The notes beneath the pieces were generated by a model. That model saw nothing but the letters and a program-made list of their open reading frames with translations. It did no database searches and was not told the DNA's origin. Below, one piece after another: positions 1 to 21,349 of a stretch of DNA of 31,244 bases (the stretch's first letter is position 1; each line of letters begins with the position of its first letter). The position numbers were made by a program, and so were the translations under genes. The stretch is from a virus (Duplodnaviria > Heunggongvirae > Uroviricota > Caudoviricetes): IMG/VR virus record IMGVR_UViG_2585428013_000006, one strand, 5' to 3'.

Positions 1-648
1 ATGGAAACAATCATCACCGTTATCGCTGCTGTTGCTGGGATCGCTTTTTGGGTTGGGCTAATCAATCCCAAATGGGTTTTTATGCCAAATCGAAAGCGTT
101 CATCTGCTATCTACTTCGGGGTGTGCCTCTTGGCAGCAATCATAGGTTCAATGGTTGCACCAGTCGCGCCGAAAGCTGTTGCTGATAATAAGCCTCAACC
201 AGCAGTGACAACCACAGATCAAACACAACCTGCGGCTAAATCCAAAGAGCAATTAACAACCACTATCGACTTTTCAGAAGCGACCAATCAACTTCCCCCG
301 GCTTTATCTAAGGCGCTCGGTAAGTTGAACCTCACAGTTAAGCCCGTCATTTACAACAAAGCTTTAGTGGTTGCATTCAATTTTGACAGCATAGAAGAAT
401 TACAGGCGACAAGCGCCGTCCAGTCCGTATGTCTCAGCTACTTCAATCATGGGGAATCTAACAGGGCATGGAAGGCTAGTTTATTCGATCATATTTATGT
501 GACTAACGACATTTTAACCAAAGGCTACGTTTTTCAAGGTGGCGAATCTTCGTGTGATATCTGGGGCAAGAAGGCTGGGGATAGTGGCGATCAATATTTA
601 AGTGAAAACCTTACACGATCAAGGTTTGTAGCCATAAATATGAAATGA
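1..648 (+). CDS. Hypothetical membrane protein with two N-terminal hydrophobic helices; cargo or flanking host gene
   Basis: Complete ORF with ATG at position 1; hydrophobic segments IITVIAAVAGIAFWVGLI and IYFGVCLLAAIIGSMVAPVAP; visibly more AT-rich than the phage core; followed by a hairpin terminator. No family recognised. Confidence 0.45.
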   Translation: METIITVIAAVAGIAFWVGLINPKWVFMPNRKRSSAIYFGVCLLAAIIGSMVAPVAPKAVADNKPQPAVTTTDQTQPAAKSKEQLTTTIDFSEATNQLPPALSKALGKLNLTVKPVIYNKALVVAFNFDSIEELQATSAVQSVCLSYFNHGESNRAWKASLFDHIYVTNDILTKGYVFQGGESSCDIWGKKAGDSGDQYLSENLTRSRFVAINMK

Positions 649-652: not shown

Positions 653-678
653 CGGCCCCATTTAGGGGCCGCTTTTAT
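653..678. terminator. Bidirectional rho-independent terminator shared by the left-edge ORF and ogr
   Basis: Hairpin CGGCCCC-ATTTA-GGGGCCG at 653-671 followed by CTTTTAT on the + strand; T-rich flank on the - strand as well. Confidence 0.6.
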
Positions 679-917
679 AATGCCAGCGACAACTGATCTT
701 CGCCGTGGTGACTTCGTGGAAAAGCTTCTTGTGGCACCATCGCGCCGGGCGCTGGCTGGGTCTGGTTTAGTGAACCGTCTATTTCCGTCATGCTGGTGAA
801 ACAGTACCCGCACAACATATTTTGACACTGGTGATAGCTGCGCCGTACAAGCAAACTCAGCTCAACGCTGGTTCTGGTTTTTGCTATTGCACGGCAGCGA
901 GGACAGCGCATTGCCAT
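675..917 (-). CDS. ogr: Ogr/Delta-type zinc-finger late transcription activator
   Basis: 80 aa, MAMRCPRCRA...RTS...YHQCQNMLCGYCF matches the Ogr C-x2-C...C-x4-C pattern; AAGGAGG 8 nt upstream of ATG at 917; sits next to D as in P2. Confidence 0.8.
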   Translation of the reverse strand: MAMRCPRCRAIAKTRTSVELSLLVRRSYHQCQNMLCGYCFTSMTEIDGSLNQTQPAPGAMVPQEAFPRSHHGEDQLSLAL

Positions 918-965
918 ACGCGGGCCTCCTTTCAGGACTGGTTAATATCAACGCAAGTATAACGC

Positions 966-2084
966 TTAAGACGTTGAATCGTCACTCTCCGCTGTCCAGT
1001 CGTCGATTTTTACTTCCAGTTCCAGCGACGTGGTAAACCCTCCCCCGCCAATATCGTGAACGCACCGCGTTATCGTCCAGTTCCCACTGTCGATCGTGGA
1101 CTTAAAGCCACAGACGCTGGCGGGCTGTTCCGGGTACAAATCTGTTCGGCCACGCGCCAGGGTGATGCTGAACGTCGCCGCTCCACGCTGCAACTCCCGC
1201 CACTTAGCCGCAGCGGCACGCTTTGCCGCCTTTTCCGTCTTGAAGGTTTTACGGATAACAAAAACGTTACCTTCTGCCCCGGCCAGATAATCCCCCTCTT
1301 TTTTGCTGGATGCAGGCTCTTTCTTTTTGGCCTGGCTGGTTCGGCGCCTGCGGGTTGTTTTCTTGACGGTAGTGGATGGTTTCTTGCCAAAGTTGAGATC
1401 AAGCCAGTATGCAGTTACGCCCGTGTACGCGTCGCGGTCAGCTACGTTAAAGCTATGTTTATCACCGCTTGACCGGACTATCTCGATCACCGGCAGCGGC
1501 TTGCCGCTCTGCGTCACTCCCTTGCCCGGCGTGATAAACAGAAGCATACCGTTTTTAATGGTTGCCACCGCGCCCAGCATTTCGGCCATGCGCGTTAAGA
1601 AGCTGATATCTGATTCACTCGTCTGATCGGCGTGGTCTATCTCAATCTTCGCCAGTTCTTCGCTGACGCCCGCACGCAGATCGTAGCGACTGGCAATGCT
1701 GGCGACCACATCCCCCACGGTAATATCGTGCCAGCTATATTCCCTCTTCACGTTGAAGGTATCGCGGAAATCCGCGCTTCTGGCACTGATCGTTAGCTGG
1801 TCAGGCGGGCCAGCGTGTCCGATCTCATCAACCGTATAGACGCCCTTAAAAACCAACGGATCATTATCCCAGCCCAGCGCCACCGATATCTTTGCACCGC
1901 GTGGTGGTAATGCTACCTGCCCGTCTGCATCATCCAGAGTCAGATCCAGCGTGTCCGCTTCAAAGCCCCGGTTATCAGTCAGGGAAAGAGAGATCAGCCG
2001 GTTATCCAGCGCCGTAAGCTGATTACCTTCAATTTCAATACTGAACGCCGGACGCGGCGAATATCGGTTTTCTGTCGTGTCCAT
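966..2084 (-). CDS. D: Tail protein D (phage late control D family)
   Basis: 372 aa; recognisable gpD-family sequence; ATG at 2084 with GAAGGGG upstream. Confidence 0.85.
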   Translation of the reverse strand: MDTTENRYSPRPAFSIEIEGNQLTALDNRLISLSLTDNRGFEADTLDLTLDDADGQVALPPRGAKISVALGWDNDPLVFKGVYTVDEIGHAGPPDQLTISARSADFRDTFNVKREYSWHDITVGDVVASIASRYDLRAGVSEELAKIEIDHADQTSESDISFLTRMAEMLGAVATIKNGMLLFITPGKGVTQSGKPLPVIEIVRSSGDKHSFNVADRDAYTGVTAYWLDLNFGKKPSTTVKKTTRRRRTSQAKKKEPASSKKEGDYLAGAEGNVFVIRKTFKTEKAAKRAAAAKWRELQRGAATFSITLARGRTDLYPEQPASVCGFKSTIDSGNWTITRCVHDIGGGGFTTSLELEVKIDDWTAESDDSTS

Positions 2085-2151
2085 ATCAACCCCTTCATCA
2101 TGATGGGGTACATCGTCGCCACGCGCGCGCGCATGAACAACGCCCCGTCAT

Positions 2152-2169
2152 TGTTGCAGGTTGCTGACA
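2152..2169. promoter_or_regulatory. TGT-N12-ACA dyad, candidate Ogr-dependent late promoter activator site (PF-like) in the D/FI divergent region
   Basis: TGTTGCAGGTTGCTGACA; centre about 81 bp upstream of the FI ATG and 76 bp upstream of the D ATG; (CG)5 tract at 2122-2132. Confidence 0.6.
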
Positions 2170-2241
2170 ACCCTTATTCATCGCATCGGCCTGCCATTGC
2201 CGCAATGATATTCGCAGTCATTAAACTGGCGAGGCAAATAC

Positions 2242-3435
2242 ATGGCCACTAACTACCATCGCGGTGTAACCGTCACGGAAACCACCGACCTTAGCACGAT
2301 GATCACCGACATTGATTCGGCGGTGATCGGTGTTGTCTGCACCGCTGATGATGCGGACGAAACAGCGTTCCCGCTGGATACCCCTGTACTGATCACCCGC
2401 GTGGCTAACATGCTGGGCAAGGCAGGTAAAACCGGCACCCTGTTTACCACCCTGAAAGCGATTTCAGACCAGACCAGCCCGCAAACCATTGTGATCCGCG
2501 TTGCTGATGCTGCAAATATCGAACCGCCAGAAGGCGGCACCGCTCCAACACAGGATCAACTGGTTATTGGCGGCACCGATGCAAACGGACGCTTTACCGG
2601 CATGTACGCGCTGCTGTCTGCCGAAATGCGCGTAGGCGTGCGCCCACGTGTGCTGGCTGTTCCCGGTCTTGATACGGAAGCGGTGGCCGCACAACTCGGC
2701 GTCATTGCCGAAAAGCTGCGCGCGTTTGCTTACGTGGCAGCGAACGGCTGCAACACCATCGCCGAAGTGAAGGAATACCGCGAACAGTTCTCCCAGCGTG
2801 AAATGATGGTTATCTGGCCTAATTTCATCTGCTACGACATCAACGCCGGGGCGAATGCTACCGTGCCCGTGGGTGCCCATGCGGTTGGGATGCGCGCCAA
2901 AATCGACGCAACGCAGGGCTGGCATAAAACCATTTCCAACGTGCCCGTTAATAACGTGCTGGGGATGGATCGGGATATCTATTTCACGTTGCAGGGCACC
3001 GATACCGACGCCGACGAACTGAACGCAGCAGGCGTTACCACGCTGATCAAGCAGGACGGCTACCGCATCTGGGGATCGCGTACCTGCGACGCAGAAACGT
3101 ATATCTTCGAAAGCTATACCCGAACCGCGCAGATCGTTGCGGATACCGTCGCCGAAGCCCATTTCGCCTATGTTGATAAACCGCTTACCCCGTCGCTGGT
3201 TAAGGACATTGTGGACGGCATCAATAAGAAGCTGACCTCATACGTGACGGCTGGCAAGCTGCTGGGCGCCCGCTGCTGGTATGACCCGGAACCGAATACC
3301 TCGGAAACCCTGCGCAATGGTCAACTGACCATTAAGTACAACTACACCCCTGTTCCACCGCTGGAAAATCTCAGCCTGGTACAGGAGTTTACCGACGAAT
3401 ATTTCGCTACGTTTTCCAGCGCAGTGAATAACTAA
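2242..3435 (+). CDS. FI: Contractile tail sheath protein FI
   Basis: 397 aa; strong resemblance to P2 FI throughout (e.g. GVPGLDT, KLRAF, NFSQRE.MVIWP, GWHKT.SNV, YTPVPPLENL); ATG at 2242. Confidence 0.95.
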   Translation: MATNYHRGVTVTETTDLSTMITDIDSAVIGVVCTADDADETAFPLDTPVLITRVANMLGKAGKTGTLFTTLKAISDQTSPQTIVIRVADAANIEPPEGGTAPTQDQLVIGGTDANGRFTGMYALLSAEMRVGVRPRVLAVPGLDTEAVAAQLGVIAEKLRAFAYVAANGCNTIAEVKEYREQFSQREMMVIWPNFICYDINAGANATVPVGAHAVGMRAKIDATQGWHKTISNVPVNNVLGMDRDIYFTLQGTDTDADELNAAGVTTLIKQDGYRIWGSRTCDAETYIFESYTRTAQIVADTVAEAHFAYVDKPLTPSLVKDIVDGINKKLTSYVTAGKLLGARCWYDPEPNTSETLRNGQLTIKYNYTPVPPLENLSLVQEFTDEYFATFSSAVNN

Positions 3436-3447
3436 CCGGGGGCGCTT

Positions 3448-3963
3448 ATGGCACTGCCTAAGAAACTTAAATATTTCAATATGTTTTTTGACGGTGATAA
3501 CTACTTCGGCATGGTGCCGGAAATTACCCCCGCCAAACTCACCAAAAAAACCGAAGACTACCAGGCGGGCGGTATGCCGGGTTCGGTTGCGGTGGATCTG
3601 GGCTTCGACGCTGGCGCCCTGGATATGGATATCACGCTTGGCGGTCTGGATGCCGGATTGCTTAAAAAATGGGGCGTTACCACTGCTGACGGGATGCAAA
3701 CACGTTTTGCTGGCTCCTATCAGGACGATGCGACCGGCGACGCTGTACCGTGCGAAATCCAGACGCGTGGCCGCTTCACTGAACTGGATCCCGGTTCGGC
3801 AAAAGTCGGGGATGACACTTCGCATAAGTACACCCTGAAAAACACCTATTACAAGCTGACCATCAACGGCGAAGAGATTATCGAAGTTGATGTGCTCAAC
3901 ATGATCTACAAAGTTGCCGGTGTGGATGTGCTGGAAAAACACCGCGCTAACATCGGCTTATAA
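3448..3963 (+). CDS. FII: Tail tube protein FII
   Basis: 171 aa, immediately after FI; size and position match P2 FII; ATG 3448 with G-rich RBS. Confidence 0.85.
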   Translation: MALPKKLKYFNMFFDGDNYFGMVPEITPAKLTKKTEDYQAGGMPGSVAVDLGFDAGALDMDITLGGLDAGLLKKWGVTTADGMQTRFAGSYQDDATGDAVPCEIQTRGRFTELDPGSAKVGDDTSHKYTLKNTYYKLTINGEEIIEVDVLNMIYKVAGVDVLEKHRANIGL

Positions 3964-3977
3964 GGAAACCCGGCACC

Positions 3978-4313
3978 ATGAGCAAGACCAAAGAAAACAC
4001 CGTTATTCTTACCGCCCCTATTACGCGCGGTAAGACCAAAATCACCGAGGTGGCGATCACTTCCGTGCTTAAACAGGCTGGATCACTGCGTGGTTTAAAA
4101 GCCTATGACGTGTTGACGTCCAACTATGACGCGCTGGTTATTCTTCTGCCCCGCGTTACCGCTCCGGCATTAACTGCCGATGAGATTGCCAGAATGGATA
4201 CCTGGGATTTTTGCCAGCTAGCCAACGCGGTGGTTGATTTTTTGCAACCCTCTTCGGATCTGAACGAGACGGATACGGGCAACGAATCATCCGATGCCCC
4301 TGCGAACGCATAG
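3978..4313 (+). CDS. E: Tail assembly chaperone E
   Basis: 111-aa ORF between the tube and tape-measure genes; AAGGAA RBS; contains slippery heptamer TTTTTTG at 4238-4244. Confidence 0.7.
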   Translation: MSKTKENTVILTAPITRGKTKITEVAITSVLKQAGSLRGLKAYDVLTSNYDALVILLPRVTAPALTADEIARMDTWDFCQLANAVVDFLQPSSDLNETDTGNESSDAPANA

Positions 4314-4438
4314 AAGACCTGATGGCAGATATCGCCGTCATATTCCACTGGCGGCCGGTAGAGATGGACGCCATGACGGTACAGGAAATACTGTTATGGC
4401 GTGATCAGGCGGCTGCGCGCAGTGGTGGAGATCACTAA
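3978..4438 (+). CDS. E+E' fusion product made by programmed -1 ribosomal frameshift at 4238-4244
   Basis: The -1 frame after T_TTT_TTG stays open for 65 codons and stops at TAA 4436-4438, immediately before the tape-measure ATG at 4439; matches the P2 E/E' arrangement. Confidence 0.55.
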
Positions 4439-7372
4439 ATGGCAGACCGCAATTTAAATATCAGGGTGGCATTCAGCGCCCTGAATAATATGTCCCGCCC
4501 TGTCAACGCGGCGCGCCAGAGTGCCGCCGCGTTGGCATCTCAAATCAATCAGACCAAAACCAGCATTAAAGGGCTTGAGCGTCAGGCAACCAGCTTTGAC
4601 CGCCTCACCGCAGCCAATAAAAAAACCACCGAACAACTGGCCCAGGCGAAAGAACAGGCCCGGCAAATGGCGGCGGCTTATGGCCCGTTACGCCAGCGTA
4701 GCGCCGAACAGGTTGCCGCTCTCAATCAGCAACGTGCAGCCATTCGCCAGTTAACCCAGCAGCAGAAAGGCGAGCAGACGCAGCTTAACCAGTTGCGCGC
4801 CAGCTTCTACAGCGAAGGCATTGCGATCAGCAGTGCCAGCCGGGCGACGGAACAGATCAACCAGCGCACCGCGCAATACAATCGCCAGCTTGCCGAACAG
4901 CAGCGACGGCTTGACGCTGTTAACCAGGCGCAGGCCCGTTACAGCCGCGCCAAAGAAACCGGCGAAAAGATGATGAGCGGGGGAATGAAAACCGCCGCAG
5001 TAGGGGCGGCAACCCTCGCACCTGTCGCCGCTGCGGTGAAATCCTACAGCAGCCTTGAAGACGCGATGAAGGGCGTAGCCAAACAGGTAAACGGCTTGCG
5101 TGACGACAGCGGCAACCGCACCCCGCAATATGAAGAAATGCAGCGGGCGATCATGGATGCCAGCGAAAAGCTGCCAATGGCTAACGGTGCTGTTGACTAT
5201 GCCGCCCTGGTCGAAGGCGGCGCGCGTATGGGCGTTGCAAACAGCGATGATCCGTGGGAAAAACAAAAAGCCGATCTGCTGGCTTTCGCCAGCATGGCGG
5301 CAAAAGCTTCGGTAGCCTTTGAACTGCCCGCCGATCAGCTTTCTGAAAGCCTGGGTAAAATTGCCGGGCTGTATAAAATCCCTACCCAGAATATTGAACA
5401 GTTGGGCGACGCCATAAACTACCTGGACGATAACGCGAAGTCGAAAGGCTCCGATATTATCGACGTGCTCCAGCGCGTTGGCGGGCTTGCCAGCCAACTG
5501 GATTACAAGCAAGCCGCCGCGCTGGGTTCCACCTTTCTGACGCTTGGATCACCTGCCGAAGTTGCCGCCAGCGCAACCAATGCAATGGTGCGCGAACTAT
5601 CGATTGCCACAGTACAAAGCGATAAATTTTTGGGTGCGCTGGATGAAATCGGCGTCAATGCTGAAAAAGTCCAGAAAAGCATGTCAGTGGACGCGATGGG
5701 CACGATTATTTCAGTGCTCGAAGCCTCTAAAAAACTTGCACCAGATAAGCAGGTAGCCAACCTTACCCAGATTTTCGGTAAAGAGTTCGGGGATGATGCG
5801 CAGAAACTTGCCAACAACCTGCCAGAACTGCGCCGCCAGATAGAACTGACGCAGGGCGCAGCCGCTAAAGGTTCCATGAACCGGGAATCTGATATTAATA
5901 AAGCTTCCCTTTCCGCTCAGTGGCAATTGACCAAAACCGGCGCGGTTAACGCATTCAGTTCAGCAGGGGAAACGCTCCGCGAACCGCTGATGGATATCAT
6001 GCTTACCGTCAGTAAGGTGATTGGCAGCGTCCGCCGCTGGGTTGAGGCAAACCCTGCGCTGGTTGGCTCAATCATGAAAGTCACCGCAGCCATAGGCGCG
6101 TTGCTGGTTGTCGTGGGTGGTCTGATGCTGTCTATCGGCGCAGTGCTGGGCCCGATGGCGCTTGTTCGCCTCAGCTTCACCACGCTGGCCGGGGAAGGAG
6201 GAATAGCACGGCTGACTGGCGGAGTAATGCGCCTGGGTGGTGCGTTCCAGTGGCTTGCTGGCTCGCCTATGCAGGCATTATTAAGCGCCGGTCGCATGGT
6301 ATTCGGCCCGCTTATCACGCTACTGGCTGGCATTTCTGCGCCCGTATGGGGGCTGATTGCGCTCTTTGCGGCAGCAGCAGTGGCCGTCATTAAATTCTGG
6401 GAACCAATACAGGCATTTTTCACTGGTTTCTTTAACGGTATCATGACGGGCTTGCAACCTGTATTTGATGCTTTCAACGCTGTTTTCGCTCCATTAGCCC
6501 CAATCTTTGACGCGATAGGCTCCGCTATTAGCGGCGTTTGGGATTGGTTTACAAAATTGCTTGAACCGATCAAATTTTCCAGCGATGCGTTAGAAACTTG
6601 CACTACTGTTGGCGAAACATTTGGGAGGGTTCTGGGTACTGCAATAAGCGGTTTGCTTTGGCCGCTACAAAAATTGATGGAGGGTGTCGGCTGGGTACTG
6701 GAGAAACTTGATCTAATTCCTGCTGGGCTTGATGCAGCAAACGCCAAAGCAAATAGCCTTAAAAAAGATCCCGTTGTCTGGGAGTGGGATCCGCAACAAA
6801 AGAAAATGGTTAAAAAGGATTGGAACTGGTCGCCAGATAAACCAAACCAGCCTAAACCGCCAAAACCGCCAATAACACCTAAGCCAGTTGGTATCCCAGA
6901 CCTTATGGGATCGCCGAACTTAACCCCGAAGATGAGCAAGAGTCTGGATAAAATCGCAGACAACACGGGAAAAATGGCAGCAAAAGACGGGCCCGGCGAA
7001 ATCGTCTTCAAGAATAAGCAGCCTTATATCCCGATCCGGGGCGGATATTCGGAACCGCTTAAGCAGGCGCAGCGCCAGCTACCATCCCTTACGGATTGGG
7101 TGACGCAGCAGGCCGGATCTCTGATCGCTTCCGTTACGCCGTGGCAGGTTGAGAAGCCCGCCGCACGGGTGCCCGTTTCGGCGTCGCCGTCTGCGGCCTC
7201 CGTCGCTGCGCTGATGCCCGCGCCGGGTGGCGATGTATATAACCTTAGCTTCGACTTTAGCGGCCAGAAACTGGATGAAGAAACCATTATCAGGCGCGTG
7301 CGCGAAGAACTTGCGTTAGCGAAGCAGCAGGCCGACCGGCGCAAGCGCTCCCAACTGATCGATCACGTCTAA
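4439..7372 (+). CDS. T: Tail tape measure protein T
   Basis: 977 aa; coiled-coil Q/A-rich N-terminus, hydrophobic Gly/Ala-rich central region; located after E/E'. Confidence 0.9.
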   Translation: MADRNLNIRVAFSALNNMSRPVNAARQSAAALASQINQTKTSIKGLERQATSFDRLTAANKKTTEQLAQAKEQARQMAAAYGPLRQRSAEQVAALNQQRAAIRQLTQQQKGEQTQLNQLRASFYSEGIAISSASRATEQINQRTAQYNRQLAEQQRRLDAVNQAQARYSRAKETGEKMMSGGMKTAAVGAATLAPVAAAVKSYSSLEDAMKGVAKQVNGLRDDSGNRTPQYEEMQRAIMDASEKLPMANGAVDYAALVEGGARMGVANSDDPWEKQKADLLAFASMAAKASVAFELPADQLSESLGKIAGLYKIPTQNIEQLGDAINYLDDNAKSKGSDIIDVLQRVGGLASQLDYKQAAALGSTFLTLGSPAEVAASATNAMVRELSIATVQSDKFLGALDEIGVNAEKVQKSMSVDAMGTIISVLEASKKLAPDKQVANLTQIFGKEFGDDAQKLANNLPELRRQIELTQGAAAKGSMNRESDINKASLSAQWQLTKTGAVNAFSSAGETLREPLMDIMLTVSKVIGSVRRWVEANPALVGSIMKVTAAIGALLVVVGGLMLSIGAVLGPMALVRLSFTTLAGEGGIARLTGGVMRLGGAFQWLAGSPMQALLSAGRMVFGPLITLLAGISAPVWGLIALFAAAAVAVIKFWEPIQAFFTGFFNGIMTGLQPVFDAFNAVFAPLAPIFDAIGSAISGVWDWFTKLLEPIKFSSDALETCTTVGETFGRVLGTAISGLLWPLQKLMEGVGWVLEKLDLIPAGLDAANAKANSLKKDPVVWEWDPQQKKMVKKDWNWSPDKPNQPKPPKPPITPKPVGIPDLMGSPNLTPKMSKSLDKIADNTGKMAAKDGPGEIVFKNKQPYIPIRGGYSEPLKQAQRQLPSLTDWVTQQAGSLIASVTPWQVEKPAARVPVSASPSAASVAALMPAPGGDVYNLSFDFSGQKLDEETIIRRVREELALAKQQADRRKRSQLIDHV

Positions 7373-7382
7373 GGGCAATATC

Positions 7383-7832
7383 ATGATGATGATTCTGGGG
7401 ATGTTCCCCTTTTCACTGCAAACCACGCCTTACCAGAGTGCGAATAAAACCAACTCCTGGCGGCACGTCAAAAACGATCGCGTGGGGAAATCCCCGCGCT
7501 ATCAGTTCATCGGCGCAGATGAAGAACCTTTCGTACTTAGCGGCACGCTGTACCCCGAAATAAGTGGCGGTGATGTGTCGCTTGTCATGCTGGAAACTAT
7601 GGCCTTTTCCGGGCGACCGTGGCCCCTGATAGAAGGTACGGGCAGGATCTACGGCATGTATGTGATTGAGCAGATCACGCAAAACCGGACGGAGTTTTTT
7701 AAGGACGGGAAGGCAAAGAAAATTGATTTTACGCTGAACCTGAAACGGGTAAGCGAGGACATACGGGAAAAGCTGGCCGAAACTACCACCGACGATCTCT
7801 TCTCTCTGGTGAAAACCAACCTTTCGATATAA
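7383..7832 (+). CDS. U: Tail protein U
   Basis: 149 aa immediately after T; gpU-like size and position. Confidence 0.8.
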   Translation: MMMILGMFPFSLQTTPYQSANKTNSWRHVKNDRVGKSPRYQFIGADEEPFVLSGTLYPEISGGDVSLVMLETMAFSGRPWPLIEGTGRIYGMYVIEQITQNRTEFFKDGKAKKIDFTLNLKRVSEDIREKLAETTTDDLFSLVKTNLSI

Positions 7833-7836
7833 GAAA

Positions 7837-7855
7837 AGCGGGCCTTTGCCCGCTT
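7837..7855. terminator. Hairpin terminator in the convergent U/G intergenic region
   Basis: AGCGGGC-CTTTG-GCCCGCT; T-run on the minus-strand side (TTTTCTTAT), C/T-rich on the plus side. Confidence 0.5.
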
Positions 7856-7881
7856 CCCCTCCTTGCGGCACTGCCATAACT

Positions 7882-7943
7882 GACCGTGCTGCAGCACCGT
7901 TAAAAATGACTGTACTCGATACGCACGGCCAGCACGGTTAGAA
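7882..7943. repeat. 62-bp intergenic repeat, copy 1; hairpin-capable; about 82 percent identical to 13913-13974
   Basis: Hand alignment: CCGTGCTG[C/G]AGCAC...AAAAATGAC...ATACGCACGGCCAGCAC[G/A]GTTA shared by both copies; terminal arms CCGTGCTG and CAGCACGG are reverse complements. Confidence 0.7.
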
Positions 7944-7969
7944 CCGGCCATGCGTGCCGGAATGAAAAC

Positions 7970-8566
7970 TTATTCCGGCTTATCCGGCCAGATGATATCC
8001 GGCGCTTTTGACGTGTCCACCGCCTGCACGGCTTTGATGTAGTTCATCCAGGCGATCAGGCTGGTTTTATCTTCATCGCTGATAATGCCTAACTGTAGCT
8101 CCGTCTGCCAGAGACTGATCGTTGCCTGCGCCTCACTCAATAACGCTGTTTTCTGTTGCTCCGCCGCTTCCACGTCCGCCGCGTGCTGCGCTTCGGTATC
8201 CGTCACCCACTCGCTACCGTTCCACGTATCATATGGCGTAGCAGGTGCCAGGGTGGTGGTATTTTCCGGGTAATCGCCAGGCAAAGAAACGATCAAGGAT
8301 TCGCCTGTTTCAGTACTGTATACCGTTTCACCACGGTGATCGGCGACGTATTCCCAGGCGGTCAAATCGGCTGTCCGGCAAATGGCCGAACCGGCTTTAG
8401 TTTTACCTGGTGCGTCAGTACAAGAGTTTGCGGGAAGACCGACGCCTACGGCCAGATATTCAACGGATGAAGAAAGGTATTCGCGCGTCTCACCCTCGAA
8501 GTTAAACACGGTAATATCACCGGCCACAGTAGCAATAAATTCACTGTTTAATTTTGCCTTTGCCAT
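7970..8566 (-). CDS. G: Tail fiber assembly protein (G-like)
   Basis: 198 aa directly downstream of the tail fiber gene; ATG 8566 overlaps the H stop. Confidence 0.75.
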   Translation of the reverse strand: MAKAKLNSEFIATVAGDITVFNFEGETREYLSSSVEYLAVGVGLPANSCTDAPGKTKAGSAICRTADLTAWEYVADHRGETVYSTETGESLIVSLPGDYPENTTTLAPATPYDTWNGSEWVTDTEAQHAADVEAAEQQKTALLSEAQATISLWQTELQLGIISDEDKTSLIAWMNYIKAVQAVDTSKAPDIIWPDKPE

Positions 8567-9594
8567 TATGCGGCTCTCACTATGTAGTTAAATGCAATAT
8601 TTCGCGGACGGGTTACATTAAAGAATCCATCCTTGAGAACTGCGGTTCTGCGTTGAGCATTAGTTACAGTGCCTAAATCCATATACCAGAGATAGTCACT
8701 TTGATAACTCGCAGAAAGGATCTTATCGCCGCCATAATCAACGGTGGTGCCGTTACTCATATACGAAATATCCAGCCCAGTATCATTATCATCCCTCCCA
8801 CCTACCAGTGTCCCTTTCTGCCATGCCATTAATGCACGTCCTGAATCTACACCTCGCCCATCATCCCATCCGCGTAAAAACTCACCGCGTAAATCTGGTA
8901 AAGTACCTGAAGTGTATGCCGTCGCCAGCTTCGGATATTTGGCTTTATCAAATGTAGCGCCGTTACACTTTAACCATCCCTCTGGCGGGGTTGCCTGCGG
9001 CCACGGAAGCGGGAAACCCACAGGGATATATTTATCAATATCCGACTCAAGCAAATATTGCGTATGTGGATCAGCCGCAGCAACATGCGCCGCCAGTTGC
9101 TGATCAGCATAGGCCTTCACCTGGATTATCTGATCATCAACATACTGGCGGGTTGCCAGCACTACCGAAGGGTCTATTTTCAGCGTTACGGCGGCGGTAC
9201 TGCTGACAATCAGGATCATGCGCACTACCTGCACGCGTCCGCTTCCCTCCTGTAACTGCGGTTTATAGGTTTCCGCGCAGTTGGCTACGGCAATCATATC
9301 GCCGTCTTTATCGAATAAGCCGATTTCACGGATCCACCACCCGCCCACGTCTTCGGGGATCACCTGTTCGGCAATAATCTGGTTGGCGTTGTTCGGATCA
9401 ATGCTTAGGGTATTGAGCGGTGCGCGTCGCAGCTCATGAATCAGCGCCGTTTGTGCCGGGTTCGGCGTCGGCAATGCACCGTTACCATCGCCTACAGCCA
9501 TCTGGGTGATCTCAACCTGCGCACCCAATGCCGTGGCATTTGCCAGTTTCGCCGCGCCCACATTGGTTAGCACGGCATAATATTTAGTCACCAC
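8566..9594 (-). CDS. H: Tail fiber protein H (short form)
   Basis: Conserved P2 H N-terminal domain (VGAAKLA, MAVGDG, SGR.Q...IVSS); no in-frame ATG near the 5' end, so a GTG at 9594 or 9591 (GGAG upstream) or TTG at 9615 is the start. Confidence 0.8.
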   Translation of the reverse strand: MVTKYYAVLTNVGAAKLANATALGAQVEITQMAVGDGNGALPTPNPAQTALIHELRRAPLNTLSIDPNNANQIIAEQVIPEDVGGWWIREIGLFDKDGDMIAVANCAETYKPQLQEGSGRVQVVRMILIVSSTAAVTLKIDPSVVLATRQYVDDQIIQVKAYADQQLAAHVAAADPHTQYLLESDIDKYIPVGFPLPWPQATPPEGWLKCNGATFDKAKYPKLATAYTSGTLPDLRGEFLRGWDDGRGVDSGRALMAWQKGTLVGGRDDNDTGLDISYMSNGTTVDYGGDKILSASYQSDYLWYMDLGTVTNAQRRTAVLKDGFFNVTRPRNIAFNYIVRAA

Positions 9595-10198
9595 TTGCGA
9601 TCTCCACGGTGTCAATTAAATGGATTGCCGCCCCGGTGTAATCATCACCGCCCACGGCTATGGTTTCAGGGAAATACGGGTACACGGTCAGCGTATCGCC
9701 GGAATAACTGCCCGCGCCGATATACAGATCGCCGGTTGTTTGCAGGTGAAGAGACATTCCCAGCATATGACGGCTGCACGGCTTCACATCGGCGATCAGG
9801 CGTTCAAGCTCCTGATAGGTTTCTTCACTAATGCCCTGGTCTTCCACGCCAATATCCAGCGTGAAGGTGCCCGGTGCGGTATCAATGTTCCACCACTCGT
9901 TAACCCGGATGAAGAAGCCGAACGGCTCAACAACCCGGCGCATGGCGCCCGTTGTACCTTTGTACTTATGCAGATAGAACGCATCGGCCACAGCCTTTCG
10001 TTTCGTGCTGATCGGCCAGGCCTCATCCCAGCGATCAACGGAGAAGGCCCACGCCAGATATGGCAGCAGATCGGCCCGACACGTCCACGGGTTCCACAAC
10101 TGGCGCAATGGCACGGGCACTTCACCCAACGACGCGCAGACGCGCGCGGCGACTCGCTCCATTCGGCTGGCGCTGGGTGGTAACAGGTCATTACTCAT
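9584..10198 (-). CDS. I: Baseplate protein I
   Basis: 204 aa; position between J and H; ATG 10198 overlapping the J stop. Confidence 0.8.
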   Translation of the reverse strand: MSNDLLPPSASRMERVAARVCASLGEVPVPLRQLWNPWTCRADLLPYLAWAFSVDRWDEAWPISTKRKAVADAFYLHKYKGTTGAMRRVVEPFGFFIRVNEWWNIDTAPGTFTLDIGVEDQGISEETYQELERLIADVKPCSRHMLGMSLHLQTTGDLYIGAGSYSGDTLTVYPYFPETIAVGGDDYTGAAIHLIDTVEIASGD

Positions 10199-11102
10199 CG
10201 TAACCCCCCACCGTTATGGTGTATTCGGTGCAGTGCGATGCCTGGTAGTCACTCAGCACGATATCCGCAACAGGCTGCGCCAGTTCAACGCGCTGGACGC
10301 CTTCAACGTGCAAGGCGGCGTAGATAGCAGAAAGACGGATATCGCGCCCTAAGCGATTCTGCGCGGCAATATACGCCTGTAACTGCTGTTCCGATGCCTG
10401 CCGGACGGGTTCGGCTTCCGGCCCAGGGTAGATGTAAAGCGTCGCATCAATCTGATACGGCACGATCTCCGCAGACTGTACCGTTACCCTGTCAGCCACC
10501 GGGCGCACCTCTTCATCGTTCAGGGCGGCAGCGACCACGGAAAGCAGATCATCGCTGGCCGTTCCGTCACCCTCGCGCGACAGTACCGAAATGGTGACGC
10601 AGGCAGGCGTAGGACTGACCGCCGAAATATCGGCTACGCGCCCGTCAGCCGAACGGCCCCAAAACTCATATGCAGCCGTTGGCCCGGCCACGCTCAGACC
10701 TTCAAAAGCCTGCTGGGTACGCGTGCGTAAATCCGCGTCTGACTCCATCACAGCTTCAATTGGCGGGGTAACGCTGTCGTCTTCTTCCTGAATGGTCAGA
10801 CGTTCAACGTTGAAATTGACCGCCAGATTATCCAAATCGCTATCCGTGGAATAAGCCAGCATTACCGCGCGGGCTGCTTCATTCACCCGCTGGCGCAACA
10901 GCAATTCGCGATAGCAATTCTCTTCCAGCAGCATGGTGATCGGCTCCGATTCAAGCTCAAGCGTGCGGGCGATCTCTTCCTGTTCATCTTCCGGGTACAT
11001 CGCAATAAACGCGGCCTTGCGCTGCGCGAAAAGCGTTTCGAAGTCCAGCGGTTCAACCACCACGGGCGGCGGTAGCTGCGATAAATCGATCGTGCCGCTC
11101 AT
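10191..11102 (-). CDS. J: Baseplate protein J
   Basis: 303 aa; ATGA overlap with W; size and position match P2 J. Confidence 0.85.
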   Translation of the reverse strand: MSGTIDLSQLPPPVVVEPLDFETLFAQRKAAFIAMYPEDEQEEIARTLELESEPITMLLEENCYRELLLRQRVNEAARAVMLAYSTDSDLDNLAVNFNVERLTIQEEDDSVTPPIEAVMESDADLRTRTQQAFEGLSVAGPTAAYEFWGRSADGRVADISAVSPTPACVTISVLSREGDGTASDDLLSVVAAALNDEEVRPVADRVTVQSAEIVPYQIDATLYIYPGPEAEPVRQASEQQLQAYIAAQNRLGRDIRLSAIYAALHVEGVQRVELAQPVADIVLSDYQASHCTEYTITVGGYDE

Positions 11103-11461
11103 GCCTGGCCCCTCAATGTAATATCGGCGTTAAATGGCGTCTGATTATCGGTGCGGTTGGCCTGGATAGTGGCAACCAGCCGACCGGCACCCGGCGCGCT
11201 CAGGGTGATACTGGTCAGAGAGATCCGCGGTTCCCATAAATACAGGGCGCTGTAGATGGCAGACATAACGCGCAGCTTCGTTATGGCGTTATCGACCGGC
11301 TGATCTATCAGGTTGAAAAGCTGCGAACCGTAAGCGCGGCGCATTACACGGGAACCGATCGGCGTTAACAGAATATCGCCGATAGACTGCGCTATATGCT
11401 CGTTGTCGGTGATGGCATAGCCTGAACTGGCATTCATGCCGCTGTAACGGACTGTACTCAT
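11099..11461 (-). CDS. W: Baseplate protein W
   Basis: 120 aa; overlaps the V stop; position. Confidence 0.8.
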   Translation of the reverse strand: MSTVRYSGMNASSGYAITDNEHIAQSIGDILLTPIGSRVMRRAYGSQLFNLIDQPVDNAITKLRVMSAIYSALYLWEPRISLTSITLSAPGAGRLVATIQANRTDNQTPFNADITLRGQA

Positions 11462-12087
11462 ACCGGGCCACCTGTATTACTACCACCGGACTGAACGCCG
11501 CTATGTTTGTGCGAATGGACAACGACACCATTAGACGAAAGCGATCCGCCTGAATGAGTAATATTGCCCTTCATTTCCCCGCCGTTTTGTACTTCCAGCG
11601 TGGCGGTGATCAGCTTGTTGGTGCAGACCACTTCCGGCGTGTCCAGGGTAACGCGCGTATCTGCCTTGACCGTTACCACCGGCACGGTGGCGGTAATGGA
11701 TTCCGACGCGGTGACGCTTGCCGTTTTCACCCCGCTGACAACCAGCGCGCTGGCCTCCGGGTCATATGAGATACGGGCGCCATCCGGGTGCAGGATCACG
11801 CAGGTGGTAGCGCCAGCATCTGGCGGCGGTGCGTCTTCGCTGTAAAGGCTTCCGGCAATGAATGCCGTTTCCATCTCACCGCAGGGGCACAAAATATAAA
11901 CCTGTTCGCCCACTGTCGGCGCCCACCACGTCACGGCTTCACCGGCGCGCGGCACTGCCCAGCGGATCCAGTCGGTTTTGTTCTCGCCTGTTTCGACGCG
12001 CGCAAGGTACTTTTCCGTATCCACTTCCAGCACGGTGCCAATGCGGGCGAGATTGCAGATAAGGCGATAGAGTTCGTTTAAATTCAT
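11458..12087 (-). CDS. V: Baseplate spike/assembly protein V
   Basis: 209 aa; first gene of the V-W-J-I-H-G block; ATG 12087. Confidence 0.8.
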   Translation of the reverse strand: MNLNELYRLICNLARIGTVLEVDTEKYLARVETGENKTDWIRWAVPRAGEAVTWWAPTVGEQVYILCPCGEMETAFIAGSLYSEDAPPPDAGATTCVILHPDGARISYDPEASALVVSGVKTASVTASESITATVPVVTVKADTRVTLDTPEVVCTNKLITATLEVQNGGEMKGNITHSGGSLSSNGVVVHSHKHSGVQSGGSNTGGPV

Positions 12088-12225
12088 AGTGCTGACTGTT
12101 TCCCGTGGTGCCGGTTACGCTGTCCGGCGTCGCTTCCACCCGGTAGCAGGCTTTACGACCGTTTCGGCTTTTGGGTTATGCAGTCAGTATCAGGAGTCGC
12201 GCGCGCGCAAACAACGCGGCGCCAT

Positions 12226-12243
12226 TGTGGCGGGTTGGTGACA
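12226..12243. promoter_or_regulatory. TGT-N12-ACA dyad, candidate late promoter (PV-like) between S and V
   Basis: TGTGGCGGGTTGGTGACA; CGCGCGCGCGC tract at 12198-12208 lies between the dyad and V. Confidence 0.55.
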
Positions 12244-12244
12244 A

Positions 12245-12889
12245 TCAAATCTCTTGCATGAAGGCGACAACAGTATCGGCCAGCCAGTCTAAATCCCCCT
12301 CGGTCATGCCCAGGAGTTCACGCACCGGGTAGCGTGCACGGGCACCCGGCACCACGTTATCGACTTCACCGTACTGGTGAACGCTGGCAATTTCGGCGGT
12401 ATGCCCCTGAAAGCCAACCACAGCCATGCCGCCCGTACCGTAAGCCTTAAGAAAGCGTGCGGTGCGCAGCTTGCGGAACATCGGATCCTTTCTGGTGCGG
12501 TTCTGCCTGGACTGGTTGAGATTGATTTCAATATAGCGCTGGATATCGCGCTTATAGAACGTGCGCAGGGCGCCGCGATCAACGTCATAGCCGGTGATTG
12601 CTCGGTGCTCACCCCTGCCCGTGGTTCGCCAGTTGCGTAACTCCCTGGCCTCATCATTCCATATGAACTTTATCCCGCCCTGGGTGCGCAGGATTTTGCG
12701 GCGGCGGGCCTGATAGCTTTCACCGCTGGGGTTCTTCTGGCTGGCGATACGCTTTTGCTGGCGCTTACGCAGCCCGATCGCAACGTCGCGCGTCAGCTTG
12801 CGACGGTGCCCCGGCGAAAGCTGCGCGGCCACACTGGCTAGCAAGTCGTCTAACTGCTGGAAGAGGGGATCGGTTTGTTGTCCTGCCAT
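12245..12889 (-). CDS. S: Tail completion / virion morphogenesis protein S
   Basis: 214 aa; follows R; start overlaps the R 3' end by 40 nt. Confidence 0.7.
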   Translation of the reverse strand: MAGQQTDPLFQQLDDLLASVAAQLSPGHRRKLTRDVAIGLRKRQQKRIASQKNPSGESYQARRRKILRTQGGIKFIWNDEARELRNWRTTGRGEHRAITGYDVDRGALRTFYKRDIQRYIEINLNQSRQNRTRKDPMFRKLRTARFLKAYGTGGMAVVGFQGHTAEIASVHQYGEVDNVVPGARARYPVRELLGMTEGDLDWLADTVVAFMQEI

Positions 12890-13344
12890 GTTTCGCCGCT
12901 GACCTCATCAACAAATACCAGTGACCACGCGCCAATTTCTGGCCCCGGTGCAGGGTCAGCACGGTGACGGGTGACGATCTCGCCATCTTCACGGGTGACG
13001 ATCACCGCTTCATCAGCCTGAATCTGGATCAGCACGTCCATCGTGCTGTTACTCAGAATATCGGCTTCAAATGTTATGCCGTTCTGCTGCCTGTCCGGGT
13101 TAAACAACAGATCAGGCTGATATAAGCGCGCCCATGCCAGCACCGGCACGCTGATAGTATCCAGAGATTCAGGAAAATCCATCACCAGCACTTCCAGCGT
13201 ATAGCGATACTCAAACGCAGCAGCACGCTGGCCGGTGCTGACCATACGGCCTTTACGCAGGTAAACCGCCAGATTATCGGGATTCTCGCGCAGCCAGGGC
13301 ACATGCTGGCTTATCATCTGGCGCAGCAAATCGGGTTTAAGCAT
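12850..13344 (-). CDS. R: Tail completion protein R
   Basis: 164 aa; position after the lysis genes. Confidence 0.75.
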   Translation of the reverse strand: MLKPDLLRQMISQHVPWLRENPDNLAVYLRKGRMVSTGQRAAAFEYRYTLEVLVMDFPESLDTISVPVLAWARLYQPDLLFNPDRQQNGITFEADILSNSTMDVLIQIQADEAVIVTREDGEIVTRHRADPAPGPEIGAWSLVFVDEVSGETWQDNKPIPSSSS

Positions 13345-13877
13345 TACTTCTCCCTCCCGGACTTAACCGCATCATACGCAGCCTCACAGGCTAATCCTCT
13401 GGCTCTTGCTTCATCAGCATCTTTTGCCAGTTGCCCCGCTCGATCGTCAGCGCGGCGGAACAGGTCGGCGAGCAGTACGGCGCCGCTGGTTTCTGCCTCG
13501 CTTCTGCCGGAAGTTCCGGCACCGCAGGCGCGTTCACGGTCTGCCAGTTGCCTGGCGAGTTTGTCGGCCCTGTCGTGCAGCCCACGAGAAGCAGCACGGG
13601 CACGATCGGCATCAGCCTGCACGCCAGCAAGCTGCTGACTGGCTTGTTTTCTGATCGCATCAATTTCACCTTGTCGGCGTTGTTCTTCTGTCCTGGCCTC
13701 TGCCTGCCTTTTCGCCAGCGCGGTGGCGTCGCGTGCATCCCGCTGTGCCCACTCTCCACGCCAGTGCTTATCGGCATCACCGTAACCGGCGCTGTAACGC
13801 CAGTGGCTAAAACCCCATACAGCAGCAGCGGCCAGCACAAAACAAACGATCACTTTCCAGCGTGACAACAGCCCCAT
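13344..13877 (-). CDS. lysB: LysB, Rz-like inner-membrane spanin
   Basis: 177 aa; N-terminal transmembrane helix (VIVCFVLAAAAVWGF) then charged, Arg/Ala/Gln-rich coiled-coil region. Confidence 0.7.
   Translation of the reverse strand: MGLLSRWKVIVCFVLAAAAVWGFSHWRYSAGYGDADKHWRGEWAQRDARDATALAKRQAEARTEEQRRQGEIDAIRKQASQQLAGVQADADRARAASRGLHDRADKLARQLADRERACGAGTSGRSEAETSGAVLLADLFRRADDRAGQLAKDADEARARGLACEAAYDAVKSGREK
13391..13660 (-). CDS. lysC: LysC, Rz1-like outer-membrane lipoprotein spanin embedded in lysB in another frame
   Basis: Lipobox LLVGC after a short hydrophobic leader; Pro-rich mature part; alternative start at ATG 13612. Confidence 0.5.
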   Translation of the reverse strand: MRSENKPVSSLLACRLMPIVPVLLLVGCTTGPTNSPGNWQTVNAPAVPELPAEARQKPAAPYCSPTCSAALTIERGNWQKMLMKQEPED

Positions 13878-13912
13878 TTCAAAACCTCTCGCCAGCTCGC
13901 ACCGTCAATACA

Positions 13913-13974
13913 GGCCGTGCTGGAGCACTGTCAAAAATGACCGCGCTCAATACGCACGGCCAGCACAGTTAAAA
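13913..13974. repeat. 62-bp intergenic repeat, copy 2 (between K and lysB)
   Basis: Same element as 7882-7943, same orientation; 51 of 62 positions identical by hand alignment. Confidence 0.7.
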
Positions 13975-13978
13975 ATGA

Positions 13979-14413
13979 TCAGGCCAGAAATAACGTGCGC
14001 TCGGCTTCCCGACGCTTAACCAGCCCCGGCAACACCTTCCCGCCTGCTTTATTCCATTTCGGAAACTCAGCCGCAGCCCCGGCGTAATCCCCAGCATTCA
14101 GCTTTTTCAGCAGTGTGGAACCTTCCAGCGCCTTTACGCCCAGGTTGTAGGCAAAATCAACCAGCGCATCGAACTGATTTTGATTGATGGTGACTTTAAC
14201 CAGCCCCGTAACGCCTTTTTCATACTGCACCAGACCGCTACGCAACAGGCTATCGGCAGTTTCCTGCGTAATGGTCATACCCTTGCCAACCGGCACACCG
14301 TTGACGGGTTGAGTCCATCCATAACCGATCGTCCAGACGCCTACAGAATCCTGATAAGCGGCCAGCCTGCACCCTTCAAAGCCTTTCAGCATGTTGATGC
14401 CGTTATTGCTCAT
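13979..14413 (-). CDS. K: Endolysin (phage lysozyme, T4-lysozyme-like)
   Basis: Lysozyme-like motifs (GFEG.RL.AYQD, T.GYGWT); ATG at 14413 with GGTGGAG RBS (the track start 14419 is GTG). Confidence 0.85.
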   Translation of the reverse strand: MSNNGINMLKGFEGCRLAAYQDSVGVWTIGYGWTQPVNGVPVGKGMTITQETADSLLRSGLVQYEKGVTGLVKVTINQNQFDALVDFAYNLGVKALEGSTLLKKLNAGDYAGAAAEFPKWNKAGGKVLPGLVKRREAERTLFLA

Positions 14414-14738
14414 CTCCACCTTTCATCCCTCCGATTCGGTTTTCGATAAACCCGGTAACTTTGTTGCGGACTTTATCCGCGCCCATAAATCCGATTGAGG
14501 CGCCCACGAATGTTACTGCGTTGGACGGAAGCCCCAGATATTCCAGCGAACCGGCCACAGCAAGCGTGACAATCCCACATACCAGCGATCCGGTGGCGGT
14601 TTTAAGCAAAGACTGCCCATCGTAAAGGCTCATTAGCGCCGAAATACTCAGCGCCGCACCAGCCGCAAACAGTGTCGGCAGATAAGTAGCGATCCATTTC
14701 ATTGTTTGTTCGAGTAATCCCGGTGGTGTGTCGTGCAT
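14403..14738 (-). CDS. Y: Holin
   Basis: About 111 aa with hydrophobic helices; ATG 14738 preceded by GGGGGAGG; the track ORF extends further 5' into gene X in another frame. Confidence 0.65.
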   Translation of the reverse strand: MHDTPPGLLEQTMKWIATYLPTLFAAGAALSISALMSLYDGQSLLKTATGSLVCGIVTLAVAGSLEYLGLPSNAVTFVGASIGFMGADKVRNKVTGFIENRIGGMKGGDEQ

Positions 14739-14748
14739 ACCCTCCCCC

Positions 14749-14949
14749 TTAATCCCATAGCTGCACGGTTTCCCGCTGGGCTGGCGGCTGGATCTCTGGC
14801 AGGTAGACAATCTGCCCGGCCTGCAACTCAGTGGCGGCGGAAATGCCCTTATTGGCATCGATCACCGCCTCGGTAACGCCTGCTGTTCTGCCGTAATAGC
14901 GCCAGCAAAGCAGGTCGATCGTGTCGTTTTGCTGCGCCTGAACGTTCAT
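14749..14949 (-). CDS. X: Tail protein X
   Basis: 66 aa; size and position between L and the holin. Confidence 0.75.
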   Translation of the reverse strand: MNVQAQQNDTIDLLCWRYYGRTAGVTEAVIDANKGISAATELQAGQIVYLPEIQPPAQRETVQLWD

Positions 14950-15437: not shown

Positions 15438-15539
15438 GATCTCTACTCCGTATAAGTCAGGCGGTGGACGGCAGGACGAAGACGCGGTGTTGCCTGTTTT
15501 CGCCTGCCGTGCCGCCTGGGTGCGCGGGGGCACGTTCGG

Positions 15540-16388: not shown

Positions 16389-16430
16389 GATGCCCCCAAA
16401 GCGGCCAGCAGTTAGCTGGCCTGCGCTGAT

Positions 16431-17477: not shown

Positions 17478-17517
17478 AGTTATTTTTCCTGTACTGTTCC
17501 TTCGTTACTGACGGCGA

Positions 17518-18363: not shown

Positions 18364-18452
18364 GGTGACAAAGCTCCGGGTTGGTAAGCGATTGATATTA
18401 ACCAGTGCCCTAATCATTCCCTTTGCAGCCGGAAGGCGCAAAGCCTTCACTT

Positions 18453-18470
18453 TGTCGGACTCAGGCGACA
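18453..18470. promoter_or_regulatory. TGT-N12-ACA dyad, candidate late promoter activator site in the divergent O/P region
   Basis: TGTCGGACTCAGGCGACA; GCGCGCGCG tract at 18489-18497; the only such dyad in the 153-bp divergent region. Confidence 0.55.
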
Positions 18471-18516
18471 ACCAGCGGCGATATTGTTGCGCGCGCGAGC
18501 GCGATAGCCTGTTGCC

Positions 18517-21279: not shown

Positions 21280-21349
21280 CGCCAGCCCGGACACACCCAC
21301 CACCACCGTGGAACGGCCAGCACGGCCGCAACTGACCACACCGCACGTA

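Follow-up and report, generated by a model that had tools for sequence, protein, structure and literature searches.

Evidence that an inverted FI-U tail block is a lineage-typical arrangement of P2-like phages, with a predicted divergent promoter pair between D and FI

The window, the whole 31,244-nucleotide stretch of viral DNA analysed here (IMG/VR record IMGVR_UViG_2585428013_000006), is a further Senquatrovirus-type prophage of the P2-like phages. Its tail genes FI to U (2242-7832) lie on the plus strand, and G, D and the late-gene activator gene ogr lie on the minus strand. In the P2 record, by contrast, a single strand carries V-W-J-I-H-G, fun(Z), FI-FII-E-T-U-D and ogr; the F operon, read from the promoter pF, ends with D, and fun(Z) stands between G and FI. 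Comparison with relatives makes it nearly certain that the inverted FI-U block is a fixed, inherited and lineage-typical arrangement of P2-like phages. The best explanation as a whole, namely a fixed inversion that arose in a single ancestral event and left D under a predicted promoter (P_D) sharing an Ogr-type dyad with the FI promoter (P_F), was assigned a probability of about 0.85. The inverted tail block is an already known arrangement, plainly visible in deposited, annotated genomes from around the 2017 SEN4/5 and P88 papers, and the promoter inference alone is a modest addition.

Gene order in the window and in related genomes

Genes were assigned from the open reading frame (ORF) map and Pfam scans. 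A preliminary description, made from the letters of the window alone, had placed G, D and ogr on the minus strand and FI-U on the plus strand; every gene call and strand was borne out by the ORF list and Pfam, and the P2 reference order that it had assumed agreed with the P2 record. The tail region is laid out as follows.

675-917, minus strand: ogr, late-gene activator, a zinc-finger protein (Pfam Ogr_Delta, E=1.5e-13; 100% identity to SEN5 by tblastn)
966-2084, minus strand: D, tail/baseplate hub protein, separated from the F operon (Pfam Phage_GPD; 98% amino acid identity with SEN5 D)
2242-3435, plus strand: FI, tail sheath (Pfam Phage_sheath_1, Phage_sheath_1C, Gp18_domIII_N)
3448-3963, plus strand: FII, tail tube (Pfam Phage_tube, E=3.4e-61)
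3978-4313, plus strand: E, tail assembly chaperone (Pfam Phage_TAC_7 at 22.9 bits, slightly below the cut-off of 25; 97% identity with SEN5)
4238-4438, plus strand: E/E' frameshift, with the slippery heptamer T-TTT-TTG at 4238-4244 and the E' extension in the -1 frame, ending in TAA at 4436-4438
4439-7372, plus strand: T, tape measure protein (Pfam PhageMin_Tail)
7383-7832, plus strand: U, tail protein, final gene of the inverted block (Pfam Phage_P2_GpU, E=4.7e-39)
7970-8566, minus strand: G, tail fibre assembly, convergent with U (Pfam Caudo_TAP, E=3.4e-36)
8566-9615, minus strand: H, tail fibre (Pfam Phage_tail_fib, Collar)
beyond H, up to 12087, minus strand: I, J, W and V

As had been proposed, FI was divergent from D, across a spacer of 157 bp (2085-2241), and U was convergent with G, across a spacer of 137 bp (7833-7969). 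The detachment of D from the F operon also held, D now being on the opposite strand from FI-U. The sign of the AT skew flipped at both junctions, as expected for a genuine switch of coding strand. No credible ORFs were found in the D/FI or U/G junctions. A 50-amino-acid ORF at 2100-2252, annotated in SEN5 as the 'hypothetical protein' SEN5_27 (record 20707-20859), spans the D/FI promoter region and overlaps the start of FI; it is probably a spurious gene call. Within the inverted block, the slippery heptamer of E/E' was in the X-XXY-YYZ register, and the -1 frame remained open for 64 codons to a TAA that ends 1 base before the T start. By these features the E/E' pair is genuine, with a predicted P2-type programmed -1 frameshift equivalent to the one annotated in P2. 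Elsewhere, the window encodes a P2-family capsid protein, a terminase, a portal protein, a gpA replication protein, two DNA methyltransferases and an integrase.

The Salmonella phages SEN4 and SEN5 (Peduoviridae, Senquatrovirus) were the only close isolated relatives detected by megablast. The window aligned to SEN5 over 83.8% of its length, with a mean nucleotide identity of 93.5% and in a single collinear series. One alignment block (673-6650) was uninterrupted over the D/FI junction, a second (6926-7962) extended from within T to a few bases short of the G stop codon, and the stretch 9104-21508 was 96.6% identical to, and collinear with, annotated SEN5. In the SEN5 RefSeq record, read in its own orientation, the fibre assembly gene G is on the plus strand, U-T-E'-E-FII-FI on the minus strand and D on the plus strand, followed by ogr, and the order and strands match those of the window over the whole genome. 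The amino acid identity of the window with SEN4/SEN5 was 93-94% for FI, 98% for D and 100% for ogr. The alignment against P2-like genomes that had been suggested as a check found the window collinear with independently sequenced phages. Since SEN4/5 is a plaque-forming myovirus (PMC5261728), the inverted order is functional and supports a working virion.

Pfam matches to Phage_cap_P2 (E=1e-132), Terminase_6N/6C/Terminase_5 and Phage_portal placed the window in Peduoviridae, as did matches to Phage_GPD, the sheath families, Phage_tube, Phage_P2_GpU, Ogr_Delta and Phage_GPA for the tail and replication genes. Equivalents of the scaffold, small terminase and L genes were located within 9104-21508 by collinearity with SEN5, rather than by individual Pfam scans. 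The nucleotide similarity thresholds of the International Committee on Taxonomy of Viruses (ICTV) are about 70% for a genus and 95% for a species. Coverage multiplied by identity against SEN5 came to about 78%. This value exceeds the genus threshold but falls short of that for a species, which suggests that the window belongs to the same genus as SEN4/SEN5 but to a different species.

The distribution of the arrangement was examined in the surroundings of FI homologs from GTDB species representatives, IMG/VR and named phages, in which gene order was scored by tblastn with the 13 tail proteins of the window. Among 101 loci, 75 were inverted, 23 were canonical and 3 were too short. All loci with an FI identity of at least about 56% were inverted, including those from Salmonella, Citrobacter, Enterobacter soli, Hafnia, Dryocola and Serratia, and the canonical loci included those of Proteus, Xenorhabdus, Haemophilus, Rhodocyclales, Sphingomonas, Ralstonia phage RsoM1USA, Erwinia phage ENT90 and P2. 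In Burkholderia KS5, where U and D alone were examined, these two genes were on one strand. Besides Senquatrovirus, the inverted order was annotated in P88 (Xuanwuvirus), Klebsiella phage 3LV2017 (Reginaelenavirus) and Enterobacter phage phiT5282H (Novemvirus), and a comparison of FI and D strands added PhiR44_2, ST16-OXA48phi5.4 and several Kp48xx phages. The window, the 75 loci and the four genera thus share one layout, with FI-U opposite in strand to both D-ogr and V-W-J-I-H-G, and with D adjoining FI and divergent from it.

The junctions were also sought as contiguous sequence. With a 1.1-kb spanning probe, the FI|D junction of P88 was contiguous in 1355 of 5426 complete Escherichia coli genomes (25%), and the canonical U-D junction of P2 was contiguous in 1571 (29%). 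The D|FI junction of the window itself was contiguous, with an identity of 95-99%, in 28 closed E. coli genomes and, with an identity of 79-98%, in 10 independent loci among those fetched. The preliminary description had left the choice between a real inversion, a lineage-specific arrangement and a misassembly. The inversion is real relative to P2 and fixed in a large lineage, and misassembly is excluded by the contiguity of the junction in independent genomes. The unusualness that it had implied was not supported: the same order occurs in four genera recognised by the ICTV, and about 25% of complete E. coli genomes have it. It is the norm of a described lineage, the very outcome that had been named as its refutation.

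No explicit description of the FI-U inversion was found in the searchable literature, including the papers on SEN4/5, P88, Citrobacter phiSM, Burkholderia P2-like phages and the Dickeya tailocin, nor is it described in a 2026 preprint on P2 structure or a 2026 Nucleic Acids Research paper on P2/P4 defence hotspots. Two 2026 papers call the P2-like core gene organisation conserved, and a short explicit note on the clade-wide inversion would therefore be useful. 'P2 synteny' is not universal within Peduoviridae, and the inverted order is nearly as common as the canonical one in complete E. coli genomes. For annotation pipelines, prophage-boundary tools and first-pass readers, an inverted block is no sign of anomaly or misassembly. 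Our understanding of P2 biology is unchanged by these results.

An Ogr-type dyad and predicted divergent promoters between D and FI

Since D is on the opposite strand from the F operon, it can be transcribed only from the 157-bp D/FI spacer. The features of this spacer and of the D-ogr unit are as follows.

2152-2169, no strand: TGT-N12-ACA dyad TGTTGCAGGTTGCTGACA, an Ogr-type activator site and the sole dyad in the D/FI intergenic region
2112-2117, minus strand: predicted -10 of P_D, GACGAT, at offset 35-40 from the dyad
2102-2105, minus strand: predicted P_D transcription start, 47-50 nucleotides past the dyad, placed by the conserved geometry and the P2 pF start
2122-2131, no strand: alternating CGCGCGCGCG run in the P_D spacer, on the D side of the dyad
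2204-2209, plus strand: predicted -10 of P_F, AATGAT, at offset 35-40 from the dyad, with a predicted start at about 2217-2219
956-985, minus strand: sigma-70-like promoter match GTGACG-18-TATACT in the D-ogr spacer (consensus match only)
651-673, no strand: GC-rich hairpin with T-runs on both strands, between ogr and the ORF at 1-648 (terminator scan)

P2-type late promoters that depend on Ogr are characterised by a TGT-N12-ACA dyad centred about 55 bp before the transcription start, by a -10 element at constant spacing from that dyad with a poor -35, and by late transcription that needs Ogr. The dyad at 2152-2169 closely resembled the one upstream of V (TGTGGCGGGTTGGTGACA, 12226-12243). Throughout the inverted clade a dyad stood 67-82 nucleotides upstream of FI, with the form TGT-N12-ACA, or TGT-N12-AGA in the P88-like group. 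The distance from the dyad centre to the FI ATG was 81.5 nucleotides in the window, compared with 83 nucleotides at P2 pF, whose start lies 48-50 nucleotides after its dyad in the P2 record.

When 28 non-redundant intergenic regions of the inverted clade (less than 85% identical) were aligned on the dyad, an nAnnnT hexamer began at offset 35 on the FI side in 27 of the 28, with the consensus GAtnAT. On the D side, 22/28 regions had the hexamer at offset 35 and 7 had it at offset 36, the consensus being TGnaAnnAT. Counts at other offsets were mostly 0-3, the exceptions being 7 at offset 38 and 5 at offset 56, both on the FI side. Scored at either offset 35 or 36, the hexamer was present in 29/29 regions on the FI side and in 27/29 on the D side. 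The first in-frame ATG of D was 53-72 nucleotides past the dyad; an apparently variable dyad-to-D distance (46-212 nucleotides) was discarded as an effect of D starts extrapolated from tblastn. In canonical relatives, the hexamer was present on the FI side in 7/8 regions and on the far side in 1/8, and the CG run in none. Within the inverted clade, 23/28 regions had the CG run on the D side and 2/28 had it on the FI side.

Given this conservation, D and then ogr would be driven by a new promoter, P_D, from the other side of the dyad at 2152-2169, and FI-U, inverted together with the FI promoter, would still be driven by the Ogr-dependent P_F. Both predicted starts would lie about 56 bp from the dyad centre, a design that repeats the divergent pO/pP pair of P2. 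For these two P2 promoters, whose divergent starts are 111 bp apart, the record gives just one 'activator binding site; pO, pP promoters', about 55 bp from either start, which is a direct precedent for the shared-site design. We regard this model, in which both the D start and its Ogr dependence are predictions, as reasonably likely. The chances are somewhat better than even that the inversion made, and the clade kept, a second bidirectional Ogr-dependent late promoter whose D side belongs to a CGCGCGCG-spacer subclass, as at V and P. No explicit description of a bidirectional Ogr promoter between D and FI was found in the searchable literature.

The sigma-70-like match at 956-985 stands at the position of the ogr promoter annotated in P2, where -35 and -10 signals lie between D and ogr. 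The hairpin at 651-673 is the probable terminator of the D-ogr unit.

Alternating CGCGCGCG runs were observed about 19-20 nucleotides after an Ogr-type dyad at the D, V and P promoters (2122-2131, 12198-12207 and 18490-18497); they were not on the FI or O sides and were absent from P2 late promoters. The P_D and P_V sequences were similar over about 35 nucleotides (ACAATGnCGnnGCGTTGTTnnnGCGCGCGCGCG). The run could serve as a spacer element or as an operator, or could be a Z-DNA-prone tract that responds to supercoiling. Only one dyad (18453-18470) was present in the divergent O/P region (18380-18530) as well, and a hexamer lay at offset 35-40 to either side of it. There, the ATG at 18417, taken as the O start by analogy with the length of the SEN5 scaffold gene, is inside the predicted P_O -10 (AATGAT), and O therefore probably begins at a later, more downstream codon. 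Transcription from P_P is predicted to begin at the A of the P start codon itself (18517), suggesting that the mRNA is leaderless or that this start codon is mis-set.

If the shared-dyad model is true, the D/FI spacer is a natural case in which an essential gene, orphaned when an inversion split its operon, captured a promoter, and it shows how such a gene kept its late control. The spacer offers a compact, testable candidate for one activator site that serves two divergent promoters.

Origin of the inversion and competing explanations

In neighbour-joining trees built from tblastn-derived protein segments, one split each in the FI, FII, U and D trees parted all inverted from all canonical loci (73 inverted versus 20 canonical for FI, and 69 versus 16 for D). 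The maximum FI distance was 1.19 among canonical loci and 0.73 among inverted loci. The canonical order is most likely ancestral, because canonical genomes are more diverse and are present in all distant hosts sampled. One inversion in the ancestor, broken at one end between the fibre module and the FI promoter and at the other between U and D, would have split the original F operon (FI...U-D) in two, into FI-U and D(-ogr). The loci L007 and L019, of a Serratia microhaemolytica contig, have the inverted order with a D/FI spacer of 302 bp, and their D is only 48% identical, compared with 80% for FI and 89% for FII; D appears to have been replaced there through recombination, with the arrangement retained.

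Several points weigh against the explanation as a whole. The trees were unrooted and without bootstrap, and the J tree failed to separate inverted from canonical loci, the smallest inverted-canonical J distance being small; the genomes are therefore mosaic, and 'one event' is strictly limited to the FI-U and D modules. A single old inversion, inherited with these modules and followed by mosaic exchange of baseplate and fibre modules, would fit this pattern. Loci were sampled by their similarity to the FI of the window, which under-samples canonical genomes near the boundary. Across the whole window, TGT-N12-ACA was found 6 times against 5.3 expected, not above chance, and the motif is thus meaningful by position and conservation only. 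P_D, its start site and its Ogr dependence are predictions from sequence conservation, and the D-side hexamer of the window, GACGAT, is a weak -10. That last point would also suit an alternative in which the inversion is fixed but D is transcribed from an Ogr-independent promoter, or through another regulator that reads the CGCGCGCG block. The strongly one-sided CG run, which has no P2 counterpart, could be a separate operator, and no second Ogr dyad was found at a fixed distance from D when up to one mismatch was allowed. Yet the D-side hexamer keeps the same 35-40-nucleotide offset from the dyad as that on the FI side over divergent genera, which would be unexpected if the dyad were irrelevant. 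The layout of dyad, CG run and hexamer also precedes V and P in the window, whose operons are Ogr-dependent in P2, and P2 pO/pP shows a shared site to be workable. We therefore judge a promoter for D independent of the dyad to be unlikely. An ancestral inverted order with the P2 order derived, or several independent inversions, is more doubtful still: the missing root and the exchange of J between groups leave room for it, but the canonical order was found in all distant hosts sampled (Haemophilus, Rhodocyclales, Sphingomonas, Proteus, Xenorhabdus, Ralstonia and Erwinia ENT90), canonical FI divergence exceeds that of inverted loci, and a single split parts the two states in four genes.

Two further explanations would deny that the strand flip is a fixed inversion at all. 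That the assembly is wrong, through chimeric joins at both 2085-2241 and 7833-7969, has a negligible probability, since the D|FI junction recurs in the 10 independent loci and the 28 closed E. coli genomes and the window is collinear with SEN4 and SEN5, in which the junction is likewise contiguous. The U/G junction was contiguous in Citrobacter and in an IMG/VR contig and was interrupted elsewhere only where a different G allele starts, and the D/FI spacer has a conserved, functional-looking promoter layout. Hardly more credible is phase variation, in which a site-specific recombinase would switch the block between orientations as it does the G segment of Mu or the C segment of P1. P88 and some other relatives do encode a Hin/Gin-type DNA invertase at the U/G junction. 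However, all 75 inverted-clade loci had the same orientation, no canonical locus occurred at an FI identity of at least about 56%, and flipping would uncouple essential tail genes from their promoter context. No inverted repeats pairing 2085-2241 with 7833-7969, as end points for a recombinase or for homologous recombination, were found. The Hin/Gin/Cin crossover core AAACCNNGGTTT, with up to two mismatches, occurred 15 times in the window against 13.5 expected, a chance level with no informative site, and the P88 invertase had no tblastn match to the window. Neither crossover repeats nor a cognate serine invertase was observed, and a single orientation occurred. Of the relatives, 9 inverted and 6 canonical loci had invertase homologs; the gene was always outside the inverted block, at the fibre-proximal breakpoint, on the side and strand of the fibre genes: in P88 (L095) at 7417-9565 with an alternative fibre cassette, and in ENT90 (L100) at 15044-15433. 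Because of this placement, in inverted and canonical loci alike, an invertase-mediated origin of the inversion was not favoured.

The U/G junction, accessory regions and comparison with known systems

The other end of the inverted block faces the fibre module across a predicted terminator.

7836-7855, no strand: GC-rich hairpin AAGCGGGC-CTTT-GCCCGCTT, with a U-run on the minus strand

The minus strand folded with -24 kcal/mol (z=-3.15), and the plus strand with -17.1 kcal/mol (z=-1.95). This predicted terminator can suit the end of the V-G operon, and its plus-strand tail is weaker; the convergent ends of the F and V operons would meet here. A second long hairpin in the spacer, at 7880-7942, has a 12-bp stem (ACTGACCGTGCTG ... 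CAGCACGGTTAG) and no U-run, with z-scores of -3.2 (plus) and -3.9 (minus).

Over the clade, the distance from U to the fibre genes ranged from about 110 bp to more than 4 kb. It is so variable that the U/G junction is a variable cargo site, the counterpart of the G/FI (fun) site of P2. The cargo site is empty in the window, and the earlier proposal that the inversion empties the Z/fun locus was correct for the window itself but did not extend to its relatives.

The window differed from SEN5 in G and the C-terminal part of H (7963-9103), in accessory genes at 1-672 and 21656-23479 and in a divergent immunity region at 28091-28880. G and C-terminal H had no SEN5 alignment. The U/G spacer with G was 84% identical to Enterobacter phage phiT5282H, of another genus, and 86-89% identical to a Citrobacter prophage and IMG/VR contig L016; from these alignments, the difference looks like a swap of the tail-fibre module with a boundary at or near the U/G spacer. 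Within T, the stretch 6651-6925 had no SEN5 alignment and flanks 92-94% identical, and forms a local variable region. The segment 28091-28880, between the early genes and the repressor/integrase end, was unrelated to SEN5 and had a GC content of 0.43-0.48; the phage may be heteroimmune to SEN4/5.

An accessory island absent from SEN5 lies at 21656-23479, between the portal gene and gene A, with a GC content of about 0.46. It encodes a 212-amino-acid protein without a family match and a 332-amino-acid protein with an IrrE/M78 peptidase domain, the latter with weak PADLOC matches to PD-Lambda-2_B, CapP and RmrA. The island is possibly defence or regulatory cargo. Past the ogr terminator, a 215-amino-acid ORF (1-648, plus strand) had no Pfam or PADLOC match and is not in SEN5. 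It sits between ogr and the attachment site, a frequent cargo position in P2-like phages.

The window and P2 have in common the tail gene set, the E/E' layout for a -1 frameshift at T-TTT-TTG, and the position of ogr after D. Both also have Ogr-type dyads upstream of their late operons, with the distance to FI the same. Unlike in P2, FI-U is flipped in the window, D has its own predicted promoter and cargo is at neither junction. The geometry of P2 pO/pP is that predicted for P_D/P_F and is also seen at the O/P dyad of the window (18453-18470). The P2 pair serves the head genes P/Q and O..S, whereas the D/FI dyad of the window would serve tail genes; the P2 late promoters are without the alternating CG run, and their starts are annotated in the record, whereas those of the window are predicted.

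P88, 3LV2017 and phiT5282H resemble the window in having the inverted FI-U between the fibre genes and D and a single D/FI dyad with mirror-symmetric hexamers. They differ in an FI that is 56-58% identical, in a dyad that is often TGT-N12-AGA and in a different D N-terminus. The U/G junction, empty in the window, is occupied in P88 by a DNA invertase together with an alternative fibre cassette.

The invertible fibre segments of Mu (G/Gin), P1 (C/Cin) and P88-like phages are similar in being inversions in the tail gene region of a myovirus, and some relatives of the window have an invertase gene at the same junction. However, these segments are small, switchable cassettes with crossover-site inverted repeats, whereas the block of the window comprises 5.7 kb of essential genes, without flanking repeats or an invertase, and in a single orientation throughout the clade.

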